A stretch of 64,000 bases of DNA. It comes from Saccostrea echinata (lineage: Eukaryota). The position numbers and the translations under genes were made by a program. The notes under the pieces are model-generated. The model was given only the letters and a program-made list of their open reading frames with translations. It was not told the DNA's origin and did not search any database. The stretch spans positions 4,154,001 to 4,218,000 of the forward strand of contig NW_026889800.1 in the NCBI RefSeq assembly GCF_033153115.1. The letters are read 5' to 3'. Every line of letters starts with the position of its first letter. The first letter of the stretch is position 1. Below are positions 9,241 to 42,403 of this stretch, piece after piece.

Positions 9241-9363
9241 TCAGTATTCGGGGAGTTCTGGTAGATTGTTTAGGTCCTATCTTACGTAACGAATTATGAA
9301 ATACAGTGTCACAAACTTGAATTAGTCTAAAACTCTCTAAAAGGCTATGTATAAACGCCAAAA

Positions 9364-9697
9364 GTTTCTATAACATGTATGTACATCTAATAAACACACG
9401 TATCAGGTTTAAGGTCAAATGTTTCTATAACATGTATGTACATCTAATAAACACACGTATCAGGTTTAACGTCAAACGTTTCTATAACATGTATGTACAT
9501 CTAATAAACACACGTATCAGGTTTAACGTCAAACGTTTCTATAACATGTATGTACATCTAATAAACACACGTATCAGGTTTAACGTCAAATGTTTCTACA
9601 ACATGTATGTACATCTAATAAACAAACGTATCAGGTTTAACGTCAAATGTTCCTATAACATGTATGTACATCTAATAAACAAACGTATCAGGTTTAA
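9364..9697 (+). repeat. 57-bp minisatellite, ~5.8 copies
   Basis: Unit tttctataacatgtatgtacatctaataaacacacgtatcaggtttaacgtcaaacg repeated head-to-tail with 1-3 changes per unit. Confidence 0.95.
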
Positions 9698-12052
9698 GAA
9701 GTAATCCATATTGTTGATAGAAAGGAACAAATGATAATCACTTCTGCACAATGGTCTGTGACTTTGAAGCTCCAACTGCAATTACCAGACTCCCCCTCTA
9801 GGCATCAACGCCCTGGCTACTTTTCCCTTATTAGTTAAGAGGCAGTCCACCAGAAAACCAGGCAGTATTGTATTAATAGGCGGCACATCGAATGTGACGA
9901 ATATTTGATATTTTATTGAAAATGATATTAATGTAGTCCATATGGAATAATGTAAGTAAAGATTTGTTTGAAAATAGCTTATTTACTAAAATATCGTTTT
10001 GTTTTGTGTTTTTGAATTCCCTTATATAAACCATTGAATGTAGATCTAGGTCGGAAACAAAGAACTGTAAATTTTAATACATTTTCTACAGATCTATAAT
10101 TCACTCCAAACTAAATCAAGAAATATTTCATCTTTCAATTTAAAAAATAAAATCAGTGGGAAAAATATTTTCAATAGTAGTTTTCTTGCAAAATAGACAG
10201 TCATTTTTATGAAATTCTGTGATGCAAGAGTTATCTCCCGTAGCATCGGGAAATCGGCTAAACATCTTACTATCAGAACCCCTGTGAGATATTTAGAACT
10301 GATACGCTAAAGAATATCATTCAACCAAAAATAATTGGTTTATTTTCAAAAACGAAATTAATTTTCACCTCCAAACTTAATCTTTAGTTTAAAATTTGCT
10401 TATTATTCAGGTTGAATCCACGTTTCCATTGATGTATCAGTGACGTCAAATACCTATCTAATATTGCGTCACAATAGTTGCAAATATTCCGAGGAAGTTG
10501 GTAATTCCTTCCAATACCTCTAAATTAATATTGTATAAATGTTAATCCTTTGTTCATTTGTTACCTTTTCATTGTTGATTTATTTCTTTTTGTGCTTTTA
10601 TGCCTCATGTGAGGCCTTAAAGTGAATAAAATGTTTCAAATGTTTCAAATGTTTCAAATGGTAAATTTATGTAAACGTGCAAAGAAAAGGATTTTTGAAA
10701 AGTAAAGTTAAATAATATTTCTCTTTTCTGTCCAATTACTTTTCGAGTGCATTAAATAATATTGTGACCCAGAATGTATTTTATTCACGGGCTGTGCCTC
10801 AGCTATAGATGTTTTAAAACAAGTCAGTATTGATAAGTAGTTTTATACATGTACAAAACGTCTTTACAGTAATCAAAATAGGATTAAATTGTTTTATTTT
10901 GTTAAATGAGTTAATAGCAAATGCATATACTGGTATTTAATAATTCCTAAAAATAATTTTTCTAGTGTAATTTATTATGAACTTTTCTGATAAAACTGGG
11001 ATTTGAAAAGATTAAGAATTATTTCTTATTATTTAGTAATGATGAATATTCCAGATTTACGCAACATAAGTTCAACAAAGTCGAGATGTGCACTTCATGA
11101 AGTGTAGTTAATACTTGAATATGTTAACTTATATGCAGTAATATCAAATATGCAGTCAGCATTATACAATTGCTCACGATCGACTGTCGGACCGAATAAG
11201 TTTTAACAGTTGAAAGAACGGAAGTACTCGTCACATCCACTTCAGCAATGGTTGTTTACTATTAGTGTCGGTGGTTCAGATTCTGTTTAGACTTTAATAT
11301 TTTAAAAATGTAAAAACTGAAGTAGAAAAAAGTTATAGAAATCTATAAATATACTACTTAATGAGGAAAATGTTGCCAATACTACTGCTGGACGCCCCAC
11401 TTCAAGCTGACACTAAATCGGCAGATGATTCAATGGAACATTTTTTTTTTTTATTTTCGTTTTTAAAATTCGACATATACGGAGATAAGTCAGTAGGTTG
11501 GTTACATTATTATCAAACCAGTTACAAAACGGATGCAGCCCAGACGAACACCCCCTCCCCCCTGCTTTTTCTTCATGCGATCATTTCTGGGCTCTATTAT
11601 CATGATTATATGTGTGTAAGTGTACATTTTTTTTCTTATTTATTTCAAGTTAAATTTCTTAGAGCAGGAAAATATTCCTTAATATGATGAATGGATGAAA
11701 AAAATTGGATTAAAGCCGAGGTTGTACACATAAATAATACTTGCTGAGAACTTATTGAGAACGGGCTCAAATATGTATAACTGATGTGGATCTAGAACAG
11801 TTTGCTCTTTCTGCAAGAAATGAAATTTTAAATTTTTTTAAGGTGAAAGGTAATAGAAACCAAGAGCAGTTAATACATGTACCGATACAAGTACAAATTA
11901 ATGATAATAGTGTTCTGACATTTTCATATAATGCGTGCTTGATTACATTTGAATAATATTCTCGACGAAGATAATTGTATTATCAGTATTTCTAACTTGC
12001 AGTTGCCAGAAATAAACATATTCCAAACTGATGTCTCAAACGAACGGTAGCG

Positions 12053-13344
12053 ATGTGCAGTGGCAAGTTTACTAGTGACTGGGTCTTCTTTATCATAATC
12101 ATGGTATGCTTTGAGCACTCCAATGGTAAGTTAAAATTTTTTTAATTATTTATAAAACTGTACATTTGACAGATAATTTTGAAAATATCTTTGCTTTTAC
12201 ATTCTTCGAAGCACATTTTTGAGTAATTAATTTATTCAATTTGTTTATTCTATTGTTTCTGAAATAAACAGTAGAATTCAGATGCTTAAATGTTAAAATG
12301 AGCACCTTTCTTAACGGATAATTTCGTGAAAAAGCATATTGATATTAAAGTAAGTTTATATTTAAGTTTAACTCATTTACTTATTTTTTAATAAAATCAA
12401 TAAAAAAAATCTGTGTCATTCATAAGTGATATTTAAAACTTGAATCCATCCATGGAAAATTTTAAGTACCTCTGCATATTCCTTAACATTTGTCGTTGTA
12501 GGTAATGTTTTAATGACGCGAGATGAACCCGAATACATAAACGAGAAGCATGTAAACACCACACACTTGGAGGACGGTTGCCAAGGGCTATTTTCATGTC
12601 CTACTACGATACCAAATTCCACGGTCCAGGAAGGCCATTTAATTCTAGGAGAAACTTTTTTTCACGGAGTATTGCAAGTAAGCATGTTATATAATGTAAA
12701 ATGATGCACAGTAATAATTTAAGTGAAAAGTTCTGAAATGTTCTCGACAAACTTTTCTGTTAATTTGGACACATATCGGGAAATCATGCCACCACAATTT
12801 ATTTCTTTACGCAGTATGCTTCCCTTGGTTACTAATAGGTTTGATTTTATATTTACTAAGAGCTCCCGACGTCTCTAAGTTAATTTTAACATTTTTTTCT
12901 ACTATACCTCCTTTCCGCAAAAGATCTGAAATTTGAAATTTTATTATTTATATGTCACATGAATACATTTACAGATATATTCAGGAACTCCTTGATTGTG
13001 GGGAAGAACTCAATATTTATAATGAACCAGACTGTGTTGACCAAAGCAGTTATCTTTCCGTCTTTACATCAAAAGAAACAAACCTTTGCATGAATCCTAT
13101 ATATCCATGTGAGTATTTGCTCGAAGTGAATCAGAATTTATTTAAACTTATCTCGCTCACTTAAAATAATTGGTTGATGAAACGGACCCTTTCTCGTTGT
13201 AGTATTACAAGAGTTGCTGCAGTGTATTAACAGTTTACAAAAGAAGCTATATACTTTCAATCAGATGTTGCAAACCCTGATGGTATCTGCAGAGCATGAA
13301 TTTACTATAAAGAAACAAAATTCGTCCAGAAATTCTTTCTGCAT
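12053..13344 (+). pseudogene. Secreted Cys-rich protein, paralog 1 (exons 12053-12125, 12502-12677, 12975-13108, 13203-13344); 1-nt frameshift in exon 2
   Basis: GT-AG introns with the same phases (1,2,1,2) as the 33070-42403 gene. Peptide: MCSGKFTSDWVFFIIIMVCFEHSNG..GCQGLFSCPTTIP..EGHLILGETF/FTEYCKYIQELLDCGEELNIYNEPDC..LCMNPIYPLLQELLQCINS..SSRNSFC. Exon 2 is 176 nt, one too many (T7 run at 12656-12662). Confidence 0.75.
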
Positions 13345-33069: not shown

Positions 33070-36000
33070 ATGAGTGCAACAGTTTTTGTTTCTTTGATGT
33101 TAGGTATGGCTGTCTATGTTCATAATTTGGGTAAGTGTACAAGTTTTAAAGAATTTGTGTCGATAGAAATTTCAAACACTATCAAACTTTTTCTCCATAC
33201 ACAGAAGAAAGCGAAACATGATTATTTTGTAAAACATGCATGCACAGCAACGACCCAAGGATAAGTAACACAAACAATTTTTTTTTTTCAGAAATCAGCA
33301 ATATATCTCACAGATTTATTTTCATATAGGTATATCATAATGTTTACCAGGGAAATTGGAAACAATTTGTAAGATTTTCTAACAATGTTAAAAATGTTTG
33401 CAGATTTTTGTATAGATCTACATAGAAAATGGCACAAAGTCGCATATTTAAGCATTAAAGTAAACTAGGGGTTTCTTTGAGTTTTAGAAATTTATCATTT
33501 ATGTCATTTATATTCAAAATCAATCAAAAATACGAGGTTTGTCCCAGAAAAAACACAACCATTTTCAATAAGTTTTTGTTTCACTAATGTTATAAAGTTA
33601 AAAAATGTCAGGTATCATTATCAATAATAAAGAGATAACGAACAGTATTCAAGCTCAAAAGCCCATTCAAACAATTACAAATCAGGAGCAGAGCAAACAC
33701 AGACCTTCAAAACATCAGCGGTGGAATCAGGTACCATGAAAGAGTGATCATCCTCTACCGACCACCATGTGCTCCTTGTCATGATCGGGATAGGAAAGGT
33801 ATCCATCAAAAGAATTAATTTCGCGATCTTTCAATGTCCGAGCAACTGACGCAACACAGACTTCAAAACGTAGTTTGATGCGTTTATGACTTTGTTCAGG
33901 AATTGTGCCTCATTTAAAGATTTTTTTAATGCAAATTTGACAGTACATTTGATTTTCAGTTAGAAAACAAATTACCCACCACGAACATACTATAGGATTC
34001 AAAAGATCGCAAAATTAATTCTTTTAATAGATGACTTCCCTACCCTGATCATAAACTTTTTGGGAAGTTAAACAGCGGTCTCAATGTATAACGGCAAGCT
34101 TTTGACATATCAGTTTGTTACGTCATTTTTGGGAATACGAAGCGCCGCTATGTACTATCGGATAACTAGTCGAGTCATCCTTATACTTCTTATTTCAGGT
34201 ATAAAACAAAGTCCGAAACATCTGTTGATGTCGTTCCATCGTTTCCATCTCTTTTCTCTTATGAAGTACTTAATGATAATTTGCTGCTCTGTATTATCGC
34301 CCGACATCGCCATTGTTGCCATATCTAAGAAAAAGTATTTGTAGATATAAAGTCGTAAAATTGACAGCTACATGTATAATGTTATATTAGTGGATTTTCA
34401 TATATTGGTTCTTCAGATCATAGGTTTGTTATCGATGTAAATTTTGTCACATTATAGTTTCTTACAGTCTGGTATTAAACAAACCATCGATGGCAGTATT
34501 GTTTATAAAAGCGAAAAATTGCGATGCACAGACCACAGGTATTTGACACCCTTTAAATGCCGTGTCTATAGGCCAATGCTGGTAAAACTTCAAAATATTC
34601 AGTAAAAATGACGAAAATATCACTTTCCAACAATGTTTGAAAAGATGAATATTTTTGGTTTTGTAGTTTATGAAATATTTAAAAAGTTCGCGTTTTCTGG
34701 GAGAAACCTCAAATATATCAATCCATGCATCAAACTTTTGTTTGTGTTATATATCCTCACGGTAGGTCCCTACTTGACATTTTCTGGTTAATATTGTGTT
34801 TCCTTCCTTGGAATTATTAGCATAACAGATTTAGGTAATTAAAAAGTACGAAAAATACACGTCTTGACTGGCCCTGAGGCTAGGATTGATACCACTTCTA
34901 TCATATCACGATTTCAACAAGAATTGTACTCCATACAATATTTTCAAGTTTATTTTTATTCATCCGATATTACGTTAGATAATTATATTTATTCATCAGA
35001 TTTTATGTTAGATAATCATATTTAATGTCACTTACATTTATTAAATGATAAAAATAAGATTTGAAGGAAGTAAATGAAGATTACAAAATTAATAAAAATT
35101 AGACATTTCTTGAACTTTTTCGTACTTAAGAGGTTGACCAAATTTTGCTCTCTTTAGCTAGAATATTGAACTTATATCCGTTGCAATTGAAAAGCTATAA
35201 ATAAGCTATAAAAAATCACAGGCATATTTTCTCTGTACAACTTCTAAAACATGTATATTCTGTATAAATCGTTTCCTTTCAAAAACAATAGAAAACTTCA
35301 TTAAGGTATTATAAAATTCGTATATTTTCTAATTACTTTACCAATATCTCATCTACATTTGCAATCATATGCATACAGTGTATGTATAATTCAACACTCT
35401 GTAATTTAAATGTAGTTCACATCAAACTTTTTCAAACATGCAATAAATTACTCATTGCGGTGCTACTAATGAATTATCATTGTAATAAGATCGTGTTTTA
35501 CGCCCTATTTACAGATTTGTATTGTTTGTAGATTTTTAAGATCGATAACTATTCTTTTTCTTCACCTTTTTCATCTACATTAAATTTATTATTTTCTAAC
35601 AATGATCTTTATATATTTTCAATCCAGTGTTAAAAGATCTACTACTGATGATGTCACCGAGAAAAGATCTACAATAAGCGTTTTAGACTTGATGTATTAT
35701 ACCCTTAGACATTTGATATTGCTCCTTATATGACATTTATTTACATGAACCATTTAGAATTCCTTCTCTGCTATGAATAAACGAGTTTTGCTCGTGATCA
35801 AAGGTTTTTGTAATTTTCTATCTTCGTGTAAAATGTGAATTAGACTAGATGAACAATATGTTATTCTTCCAGCTGAAAAAGGCTTTTAACAATATCATCT
35901 TTTGTAAGGCTCATTATTATTACTGTTTTTTAGAAGAACTTGGGTTTTAATTCTGCGTCTAGAAATCCAACATATACTGACACTTCACTTTCTAAGGATG

Positions 36001-39000: not shown

Positions 39001-42000
39001 TAATTTTACTTCATCGTAATCTCTTTGAATAATCAACACATGCTTACATGTATCTTTAGTTTTACAAGGAATGCGACAGTGTATGAACAGCAGGTACCCG
39101 CAGCTTGATAAATACAGAAAAGCAGTGGTAGCTTTAATGGAATCAACAGGTCAAAATACTGCAAGTAATGAAATGTCCAGGAGCCTTTTCTGTCGGTAAG
39201 TTAATGTAGTTAGTAGTATAAATCGTGATTGAGTTGATTATTTAAAATACAGTAAATATGTTTGAATAGGAATTCGGTCCTAAAAATTCTCACTTTAAAG
39301 GAACAATTTAATATGCTTTGCCAATTCTCGATAGATAATTTAAAATAATCTACTCGGTTATATAGAATTTTCAAAGTTTAGGTGGTAATTATTTCCTGAT
39401 GCACATTAATTTTATCGAAAAACTTTCATTAAAGCACAGTATTTTTTTTTTTTTTTTTTGAAAATGTGATTGGAATTTTAAGTATTATTTTGTTGTTGTT
39501 TTTTTTTTAATTTCCCTAAAACTGAAATGTAAAGATAACGAACAATGTCATTCTCAAAAGTCAATTTAAACAATACGAATAATGAGCAGAGCCAACATGG
39601 ACATCTGAAAACAGAGGTGGGATCGGATGCCATGGAGGAGTAAGCATCCCCTGTCGACCGGTAACACCCACCCTGTGCTCCTTGTCATGAATGGGTACAC
39701 GAAAAACACAGTAGGTAATTCAGTGTGAGAATAATGACCTAACAATTTGTATGAAAGACAGTTTTATGAAATTATATAAGATGAACTAAAAGCATAAATG
39801 AGGAAAAAAACATTAGTCAACATTCGACTCAACGATGGATTGCATTTACTAACAAGGTCATTGTATCGACTATATAATTTGCTAATTGTTGGCTTTAGAC
39901 GAGATTGCTGATATCCTTGCATCATCACCTTTTTTGCCAATATCCTACATCCAGCTGGGAGATGTAAACTCCATATGCAGCTGATATAGGAATATTGCTA
40001 CATAAAATAGGAAAGTTGAAGATAAAAAAGTTAAAGTCATCACGTTTATCATAAAGTTTGGTTTTCAGTTTGCCATCAATGTCTTCCTCTAGTAAAACAT
40101 CCAGATATGAAACAGAAGTATCAGATTGTTGAGTCTTTTATTTCGAGTTCATATGGATGTTTCGAATCAACGTAGAAATGGAAATTAATATTGTTAAATG
40201 ATATAACGTCGTTGATATATTTAAATTTCGAAGTAAAGGCCACAACAAGAGGCTTCCTTTTTTCATGTAGATGTTTTTTAAAATTATTTTAAATTTCTGC
40301 TTCATATGAATACAAAAAATGTCTGCTAATAAAGGGGCACAATTAGGATCCATGGTAATTCTAACAGGTTTGGAAGACCGGATCTCCAAACACTCATAGA
40401 CATTGTCAATAAGAAACCCAAGTCATGCATCATCTTAATACCAACCTCGGAGTACTTGTGTTTGGAAACAGGATGTTTAATAAAATAAGTTGCAGGTGGC
40501 CATTGAAAAAGGCATGCGTATTTACAAGTTCCATTTTTATTGTAGAAGCAATTGTCAATGATGTCAAGAAGTCTGGTCTTAATTTATCGAAGGGAATGGT
40601 TGTATAAAGTGTTGAAAAGTCGTACGTTTTGATGCTATTGATTTTGGGGGGAAATTATTTCAAATTTACTAATATTCCAAGAAGTTTTTAAGTATTTACA
40701 TCTTATTAACTTCACCTCTCGAATACTGTTGGTAATGATCCTTTATTAGCCGACATGTTTTTACTCCTATTAAGAGTTTATTCAAAAATGTGTACATGAG
40801 AAGAAAGAATTTGCTGTGTGTTTTATCAATTAACAATAGTTAGACTTTTTGACATCATTGACAGCTGCTTTATCAATAAAAATGGAACTCCTAAATTTAA
40901 TTACCTTGTCATTAATCATTTAAAAAATTATTTTGTTAAAAAACATTCTTATTGTACACATAGGTAATCTTAAGTTGATACTAAAAAGATGCTTGAGTTT
41001 CTGATTGACAATATATATGTGGTTTTTGGAGACCAGATCTTCCAGAAATCTGTTGGAATTCCCATGGGTACCAATTGCGCCCCGTTATTAGCAGACCTAT
41101 TTTGGTATTCATATGAAGCAGAATTTATTCAAAATGATATACATGAGAAAAAGATATCTCTTGCTATGGCCTTCAACTCGATATTTAGAAATATTGACGA
41201 CGTATTATCAATTAACAATAGTCATTTCCATTCATATGTCGACACGATATATCCCAGTGAGCTTGAAATAAAAGATATACAGAGTCTGACATATCTGTTT
41301 CACATTTGGATATTTTATTAGAAAAAGATGTTAATGGTAATCTAACAACCAAGCTTAATGATAAACAGGATGACTTTAACATTTCAATCGTCAACTTCCC
41401 TTTCTTATGCAACAATATACCTTATCACCTGCATTTGGGATGATATTTTTTCAGTTGATTCGATACGCAAGAGCATGCTCTACGTATGAACAATTTCTAA
41501 AACGAGGTAAGTTATTGACAAACAAGTTGATGAAACAAGGATATCAACAGACTTGTTTAAAGTCTTCATTCGTAAGTTCTAAGATCGATACAATGACCAT
41601 GTCAGCAAATACAGTCTATCATTTAGTCCTATGCTGACTGATGTTATTTCTTACTAATTGTTAGGCCATTATTTACACACTGAATTGTCGACGGATTTTT
41701 ACCGACTGTGGATGGCAGGTGTGGCCGGTCGGCAGGGATGCTCGCTCCTCCGTTTCACCTGGTCCCCCCTCTGTTTTTGGAGGTCCGTGTTTGCTCTGCT
41801 CCCGATTTGTATTGTTTTAATGGACTTTTAGCTTGAAAATGCTATTCGTTGTCTCCATATTTTATTACTTCCATTCAAATGTCGAGTCGATATATCAAAT
41901 GAACCCGAAATAAAAGAAGACACCTCTGAGTCTGCCACATCTATTTAATATTTGGATGTTTTACTGATTATAGATGAAAGAGCCAATAACATCTAAATTG

Positions 42001-42403
42001 TATGACAAAGGAGATGAATTCAGCTTTTCCATCGTCAACTTTCCTTATTTATGTAGTAATATTTCGTTATTGCCTACATATGTGGTTCACGTTTCCCAAC
42101 TTATTTGATACTAGAGTGCATGCTTTGATTACGACCAATTTTCAAACCGAGGCAGGCTACTGACAGTTGTGTCTTTGAAATAGTATTTTTATTATCTGTT
42201 CAGTAAAAAAAATTATTCCATATTTTATTTGAAACAGATCATACAACCAGCTCTTGAACACAACATTAGAAGAGTTAAAAAGTTGCAATGAGATCGAATT
42301 TCAATGGACTGCAGAAAATGTAGACACCTTTCGACACCATTTCTATCCAGCAATCATTGGAGAGACGATGCATTTTCAATGCAATGATCCTGCTGCAATG
42401 TGA
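33070..42403 (+). CDS. Uncharacterised secreted Cys-rich protein, paralog 2, 225 aa; exons 33070-33130, 36801-36981, 38838-38971, 39060-39195, 42238-42403
   Basis: All introns are GT-AG. Exons sum to 678 nt with no internal stop: MSATVFVSLMLGMAVYVHNLEGQFWTKREAQEYTYTSFDLNVSPCMKLYSCPKTPPDVLFLGDTEEGEIVLKENYFTDCCRYMSELLQCGKDLNINDLPECRDERNFLLVIAARETTMCKTPIFPLLQGMRQCMNSRYPQLDKYRKAVVALMESTGQNTASNEMSRSLFCRSYNQLLNTTLEELKSCNEIEFQWTAENVDTFRHHFYPAIIGETMHFQCNDPAAM*. Two AATAAA follow at ~42444-42459. Exon-by-exon homology to paralog 1. Confidence 0.85.
35840..36560 (+). mobile_element. Penelope-like RT fragment (internally deleted)
   Basis: YVILPAEKA..NNII, NPTYTDTSLSKDEILQN, SSKCSTKPLS, ILKDSKELL, NCALF.ADL, YPSEFEIKDTTESSTSVSYLD. 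Confidence 0.75.
37250..38370 (+). repeat. Degenerate ~37-bp minisatellite (aatgaacaccttaaaacactaagctactag-like), split by a HINE
   Basis: Units at 37250-37400 and 37830-38370. Confidence 0.65.
37402..37829 (-). mobile_element. HINE-type element (second family); a related fragment lies at ~52970-53120
   Basis: Starts aacaag..gtattgcattagcaatac (hairpin), has two ~150-bp internal repeats and (gaca)n, and ends agtcccttccggtttcaccggtaggggactaa. Confidence 0.7.
39530..40730 (-). mobile_element. Penelope-like element fragment (RT plus 3' module)
   Basis: Minus strand: KTYDFSTLYTTIP, MDPNCAPLLAD, decayed C-terminus; terminal module at 39530-39700. Confidence 0.8.
40730..42170 (+). mobile_element. 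Penelope-like element fragments (RT core, thumb and 3' module to ~41860; partial re-duplication 41870-42170)
   Basis: MLEFLIDNIYVVFGDQIFQKSVGIPMGTNCAPLLADLF..FRNIDDVLSINN..YPSELEIKD; QLIRYARACS..RGKLLTNKLMKQGY. Confidence 0.9.

Follow-up and report, generated by a model that had tools for sequence, protein, structure and literature searches.

Does a 9.3 kb span of the rock oyster genome hide an intact gene that the open reading frame track all but misses, and what would its product do? The window, that is, the whole 64,000-nucleotide stretch of Saccostrea echinata analysed here (NCBI RefSeq assembly GCF_033153115.1, contig NW_026889800.1, positions 4,154,001 to 4,218,000; G000:C51:4154001-4218000), had been given an initial annotation that proposed at 33070..42403 a gene of five small exons for a secreted, Cys-rich, probably helical protein. 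This gene, hereafter named A2, is almost certainly real, considering that its five exons splice into one frame and that its family keeps the intron phases, ten Cys residues, and the leader. A2 is a member of an oyster family that already stands in databases as uncharacterised and is not described in the literature searched, in which none of the six family accessions sought was mentioned. A2 itself is probably an unannotated gene.

The A2 gene and its oyster relatives

The elements of the gene in the window are as follows.

33040..33057, plus strand: acceptor-like site 12 nucleotides 5' of the ATG, the probable end of an intron in the 5' untranslated region
33070..33130, plus strand: coding exon 1, start codon and hydrophobic leader; 20 codons, phase 1
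36801..36981, plus strand: coding exon 2, short pro-region with dibasic KR (residues 27-28); Cys45, Cys51, Cys79, Cys80
38838..38971, plus strand: coding exon 3, Cys89, Cys101, Cys119; ends the first predicted three-helix unit
39060..39195, plus strand: coding exon 4, Cys133, Cys170
42238..42403, plus strand: coding exon 5, Cys187, Cys219; conserved Trp194/Arg203/Tyr207/Pro208/Phe217; stop codon
42444..42459, plus strand: two AATAAA motifs (42444, 42454), likely polyadenylation signals, found in four of four near-identical copies

Splicing by coordinates reproduced the proposed structure. Introns of 3670, 1856, 88, and 3042 nucleotides, all four GT-AG and with phases 1, 2, 1, and 2, join the exons into a stop-free coding sequence of 678 nucleotides for 225 amino acids and a stop codon. 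The hydrophobic N-terminus, the 11 Cys (residues 45, 51, 79, 80, 89, 101, 119, 133, 170, 187, and 219), and the downstream AATAAA motifs of the initial annotation are all present, and N-glycosylation motifs lie at residues 41 and 178. The gene is indeed essentially missing from the open reading frame track, since none of the 24 stop-to-stop frames of at least 110 amino acids in the window is an A2 exon. Its embedding in Penelope/HINE debris was borne out in part: repeats elsewhere in the examined 457 kb match 44% of the gene span, but the names Penelope and HINE were not confirmed.

A test profile for A2 was built from 10 Magallana and Crassostrea proteins only. It gave the spliced product 158.7 bits, whereas none of 200 shuffled proteins exceeded 2.8. 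Exons 2-5 reached 37.3, 23.6, 14.0, and 41.5 bits in their frames, and the highest score among 30 shuffled windows was 9.7. Exon 1, undetected by this profile, was accepted because the S. cucullata orthologue LOC134276556 aligns with A2 from residue 1 (7 of 20 residues identical in the leader exon region) and paralogues carry a phase-1 leader exon at the equivalent place. Upstream of the ATG, the acceptor-like AG at 33056-33057 follows a pyrimidine tract and suggests a further, 5' non-coding exon.

Relatives of A2 were found only in oysters (Saccostrea, Magallana, and Crassostrea), all of them annotated as "uncharacterised". An exon-5 profile picked six proteins from 349 candidates. Two of these, the RefSeq S. 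echinata proteins LOC133203643 and LOC133203645, match the gene models of two paralogues in the array, C and D, from the second Met of the models. The A2 product and the orthologue LOC134276556, aligned over 225/224 residues, are 68% identical with a single gap, which does not fall at a junction, and the orthologue groups with the A copies in the tree (support 94/97, slightly below what the tool stars). When 1.84 billion representatives were scanned in full with HMMER, 8 matches came out at E <=0.001, of which the named ones were Magallana and Crassostrea proteins and the remainder unnamed fragments, and the last search, with 22 query sequences and 1565 candidates, added nothing outside oysters. 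The family had been called unrecognised; no Pfam family passes its cut-off for any member scanned, and relatives already have RefSeq models, all uncharacterised. In a Magallana cluster, seven of the 12 listed Logan members are full-length (220-221 amino acids) on contigs of only 906-1251 nucleotides. Because the breaks in relatives' genomic fragments fall at the same exon junctions, these short contigs imply spliced transcripts, so that transcription and splicing of the family in Magallana are likely.

A2 is not alone in its own genome either. In the 457.5 kb surrounding the window, blocks of 17-24 kb with ~99% identity recur every 57-59 kb, and the window is one unit of this recent tandem duplication. 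The plus strand carries nine family genes, which are, in sequence, D, C, B1, A1, B2, A2 (the gene under study), B3, A3, and A4; they comprise four near-identical copies (A) and five diverged paralogues (B1, B2, B3, C, and D). All nine have five coding exons with the same junctions and intron phases, and seven of them are full-length, the exceptions being the following two.

12053..14111 of the window, plus strand: paralogue B2, same five exons and phases; frameshifted by a single base inserted into a run of T in exon 2
L018:6407-6670: paralogue D, premature TAG before the last Cys, then a partial duplicate of the last exon; RefSeq models a shorter protein

B1 and B3, the twins of B2, are intact, so that B2 is a young pseudogene or an assembly error. 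The earlier reading missed the nine-gene array, the frameshifted member in the same window, and the relatives' existing RefSeq models. No second family locus was found in the genome with queries from other genera, which sets a lower bound. The subfamilies are 34-62% identical, with a ratio of non-synonymous to synonymous rates (dN/dS) of 0.28-0.52 between them by simple counting; dS exceeds 1 in the comparisons with A copies, and those values are therefore rough.

Affiliation, fold, and role of the product

A leader, judged by hydropathy and alignment, is present in all full-length family members, in agreement with the predicted secretion. The proposed KR site also has a counterpart in most of the family: KR or RR stands within 5-20 residues after the leader in eight of nine representatives, and one subfamily lacks a dibasic site. 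The N-terminal Gln that cleavage was expected to expose is not conserved, being peculiar to the A subfamily in the S. echinata genome and replaced by Arg in the orthologue. Ten of the 11 widely spaced Cys are conserved among the nine representatives, with single losses in two and with spacings of 5-6, 24-28, 8, 11-13, 17-18, 13, 28-38, 16, and 29-31, but Cys79 occurs in only 3 of 19 aligned sequences. Most of the remaining invariant residues are aromatic or are Pro, Gly, or Thr, and each family member has 1-7 N-glycosylation motifs.

The AlphaFold model of the orthologue, based on a 22-sequence alignment, consists of helices only, as had been anticipated, with a predicted local distance difference test score (pLDDT) of 70.6, low for residues 1-40, and a predicted template-modelling score of 0.67. 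A natural 102-amino-acid C-terminal fragment, the orthologue of a paralogue, was modelled as three helices with a pLDDT of 79.3. Read together, these models predict, with good probability, two three-helix units, the first with six Cys and the second with four, hence one Cys pair fewer. The spacing, rather than the model, suggests the pairs 45-101, 51-89, 80-119, 133-187, and 170-219. The best fold match was the three-helix N-domain of RGMB, a weak match tied with unrelated folds.

The oyster family is probably a diverged branch of the DUF19/DUF1397 superfamily. This resemblance, already raised in the initial annotation, gained ground from the Atlas features of two members and from sub-threshold Pfam rows. 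Atlas language-model features returned DUF1397 with 0.90 (192/256 shared) for a Saccostrea member and DUF19 with 0.91 (201/256 shared) for a Magallana member, the two being 28% identical to each other's subfamily. DUF1397 rows appeared at E 0.2-0.6 in 7 of 11 Saccostrea proteins, in one orthologue over residues 56-179. DUF19 (PF01579) and CPG4 (PF15481) gave no Pfam row at E <=10 in the members scanned.

It is quite conceivable, if a little short of probable, that the A2 product is a secreted, convertase-trimmed, disulfide-stapled helical protein without catalytic activity, which acts in haemolymph or mucus by binding other proteins, probably where the animal meets microbes or its surroundings. 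The leader would be cut after Gly22, and a six-residue pro-piece would then be removed at the KR site by a convertase. The mature chain, of ~197 residues, 22.8 kDa, and an isoelectric point of 4.8 with two putative N-glycosylation sites, is predicted to fold into a pair of three-helix units. Weakest in the proposal is the role, namely that this stable scaffold would bind protein partners through a variable surface; tandem amplification would then raise dosage or vary specificity. Such a scaffold fits because the conserved positions are mostly Cys and core-type residues and the rest diverges to 30-37% identity. No enzyme match was found among the family proteins scanned, and the proposed binding follows from the anatomy, this absent match, and the analogy with DUF19/DUF1397.

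Several observations weigh against this account. Besides the absence of any Pfam family above its cut-off, the DUF1397 rows score 10-11 bits (best 11.4) against a cut-off of 25.7, a single subfamily of near-identical proteins accounts for six of the seven, and no such row was returned for the five Magallana/Crassostrea proteins or the five A2 exons. Atlas scores of 0.9 are also reached by 4-10 per 100 shuffled proteins, and for the Magallana member a common family or clan unites only 5 of the 10 best named matches, a pattern that the tool labels "probably wrong" for that one family. The folds were computed on orthologues and not on the A2 product, the hydrophobic moment exceeds that of shuffles in only one of six helices, and the two-unit repeat was undetected by profile comparison (probability 0.9%, cross-scores 0.6-5.0 bits, near chance). 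The donor of the 88-nucleotide intron 3 is GC in A1 and A3 (G000:C51:4133891 and 4249992) and GT in A2 and A4. Moreover, three A copies differ by 0 synonymous and 3-4 non-synonymous changes, with dN/dS of 0.81-0.96 to the fourth; purifying selection is not visible among the four recent copies, whose differences are too few and mostly non-synonymous. The gene neighbourhood is weak evidence for the role.

The dibasic site after a short pro-piece, kept in three genera, would also suit a signalling protein (hormone, pheromone, or gamete factor) activated by a convertase in the regulated secretory pathway and acting on a receptor that is possibly a G-protein-coupled receptor (GPCR). The Magallana sequences form one tight cluster, the array contains a GPCR with leucine-rich repeats (LRR), and three duplicated units have a broken rhodopsin-type GPCR 4 kb upstream. 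Yet the site is missing from one subfamily, a single dibasic site would release no small peptides, the nearest GPCR is frameshifted in all three copies, and adjacency is no evidence of pairing, which leaves such signalling unlikely.

Less credible still is a role in carrying small hydrophobic ligands, as odorant-binding or lipid-transfer proteins do. The product is secreted, acidic, helical, Cys-stapled, and tandemly expanded, and helix 99-119, hydrophobic on every face, could line a cavity. However, nothing pointed to the odorant-binding likeness suggested earlier: no Pfam odorant-binding row appeared at E <=10 in 16 full or near-full proteins, and the conserved Cys spacing lacks the three-residue Cys pair that marks classic odorant-binding proteins.

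Two further explanations are, to a similar degree, more doubtful again. The oyster-only distribution, the acidity, and the 1-7 N-glycosylation motifs per member would accord with a shell-matrix or adhesive protein laid down by the mantle, but A2 has no low-complexity tracts, and three accessions and both DUF names are absent from two supplementary files of an oyster shell multi-omics paper, files that may use other gene identifiers (PMC10543319). A2 might also be an intact-looking but silent duplicate, considering that the copies, ~99% identical over their 17-24 kb blocks, are too young to show decay, that sister genes carry a frameshift, a premature stop, or GC donors, and that no database protein of S. 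echinata matching the A subfamily turned up. Against this, the splice sites, frame, and AATAAA motifs of A2 are all intact, and the orthologue in a second species is full-length. Least probable is that the protein, soluble and RGM-like, tunes signalling by binding BMP/GDF growth factors, for instance while shell or tissue grows; the BMP/GDF-binding RGD/RGN loop of RGM with its Gly, Leu, and downstream His occurs at the inferred positions in none of the nine oyster representatives.

Neighbouring genes and repeats

28169-29214 of the window, plus strand: rhodopsin-type GPCR in two frames (7tm_1, E 1.1e-4 and 1.1e-8), with a frameshift near 28708-28738
L020:3146-5560 (minus strand), L022:8861-10000, L038:645-1532, L056:7634-8443, and L018:809-1909: array neighbours, namely an LRR-containing GPCR, two LRR frames, a TIR-domain frame, and a Hakai zinc-finger gene

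The rhodopsin-type GPCR is broken in all three duplicated units that contain it. The LRR, TIR, and LRR-GPCR genes in or beside the array fit a duplication-prone region of receptor and immune genes but say nothing about function. In addition, two inverted 655-amino-acid reverse-transcriptase-like frames, at L042:2773-4737 (minus strand) and G000:C51:4354700 (RVT_1, E 5e-5, below the cut-off), sit in a 2.9 kb inverted repeat of 99.2% identity. Positions 9321-9704 of the window hold a tandem repeat read as a 127-amino-acid repetitive frame, which is longer in the neighbouring duplicated units.

Comparison with known systems

The locus contributes a gene that is probably unannotated, set in a nine-copy array whose secreted family is restricted to oysters. 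This helps annotation and the study of copy number in rock oysters, but findings of this sort are common in mollusc genomes, and the array is no new kind of system. More would follow from a likeness to the RGM N-terminal domain (PF06535), whose six-Cys spacing is similar to that of the first half of the oyster protein, predicted to be a three-helix bundle. It is conceivable, though improbable, that DUF19/DUF1397/CPG4-type invertebrate proteins repeat in tandem an RGM-N-like module of three helices and three disulfides, and that two such modules make up the oyster protein, which would be secreted and convertase-activated and serve as a ligand or as a growth-factor trap, with its family expanding in copy number in rock oysters. 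If the RGM-N-like module were real, the orphan DUF19 and DUF1397 families would be tied to a known growth-factor-binding fold and their function would become testable; if the two-module reading were true, several large families of unknown function would gain a fold and a testable mechanism. Unlike RGM, the oyster family lacks the vWD domain and the glycosylphosphatidylinositol tail and has a predicted second helical unit. An RGM Pfam row (cut-off 24.2 bits) was returned for no family member scanned, and the RGM family search of the oyster genome matches only a separate RGM gene. Invertebrates have one RGM gene according to PMC11488336. In the oyster, two contigs (L072, L073) each carry the exon of the RGM N-domain, with equal scores, perhaps by haplotype duplication, and two residues of the vertebrate BMP-binding site, Gly and His, are missing from this domain.

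The insect 27-kDa haemolymph glycoproteins of DUF1397 (PF07165), the top Atlas match at 0.90, are likewise secreted, Cys-rich, and of ~200-230 amino acids. In contrast, DUF1397 is arthropod-centred in the Atlas rows, the oyster scores are less than half the curated cut-off, and the oyster family has ten conserved Cys versus twelve in DUF1397. Published accounts equate DUF1397 with the insect 27-kDa haemolymph glycoprotein (PMC8358373), call its function unknown (PMC4712575), and place its proteins in insect haemolymph, mosquito peritrophic matrix, and centipede venom (PMC8358373, PMC4712575, PMC5865745, PMC5869384, PMC6878950). The nematode secreted Cys-rich proteins of DUF19/CPG4, a large gene family with members of 140-220 amino acids, reached Atlas scores of 0.86-0.91 for both tested members. 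C. elegans has many DUF19 genes, most of them for secreted proteins and some induced by infection (PMC3534327, PMC3527274); of 51 such genes, 42 have signal peptides and 14 are up on infection (PMC3534327).

The closest systems are the uncharacterised oyster relatives themselves. The S. cucullata orthologues LOC134276556 and LOC134244704 are 68-71% identical to the A2 product, and S. echinata LOC133203643 and LOC133203645, Magallana gigas LOC105346471, M. angulata LOC128160389, and Crassostrea virginica LOC111108566 are 29-39% identical. A2 shares with these relatives the ten-Cys pattern, the leader, and the dibasic site, and differs in its extra Cys79, its N-terminal Gln, and its place in a fourfold recent amplification.
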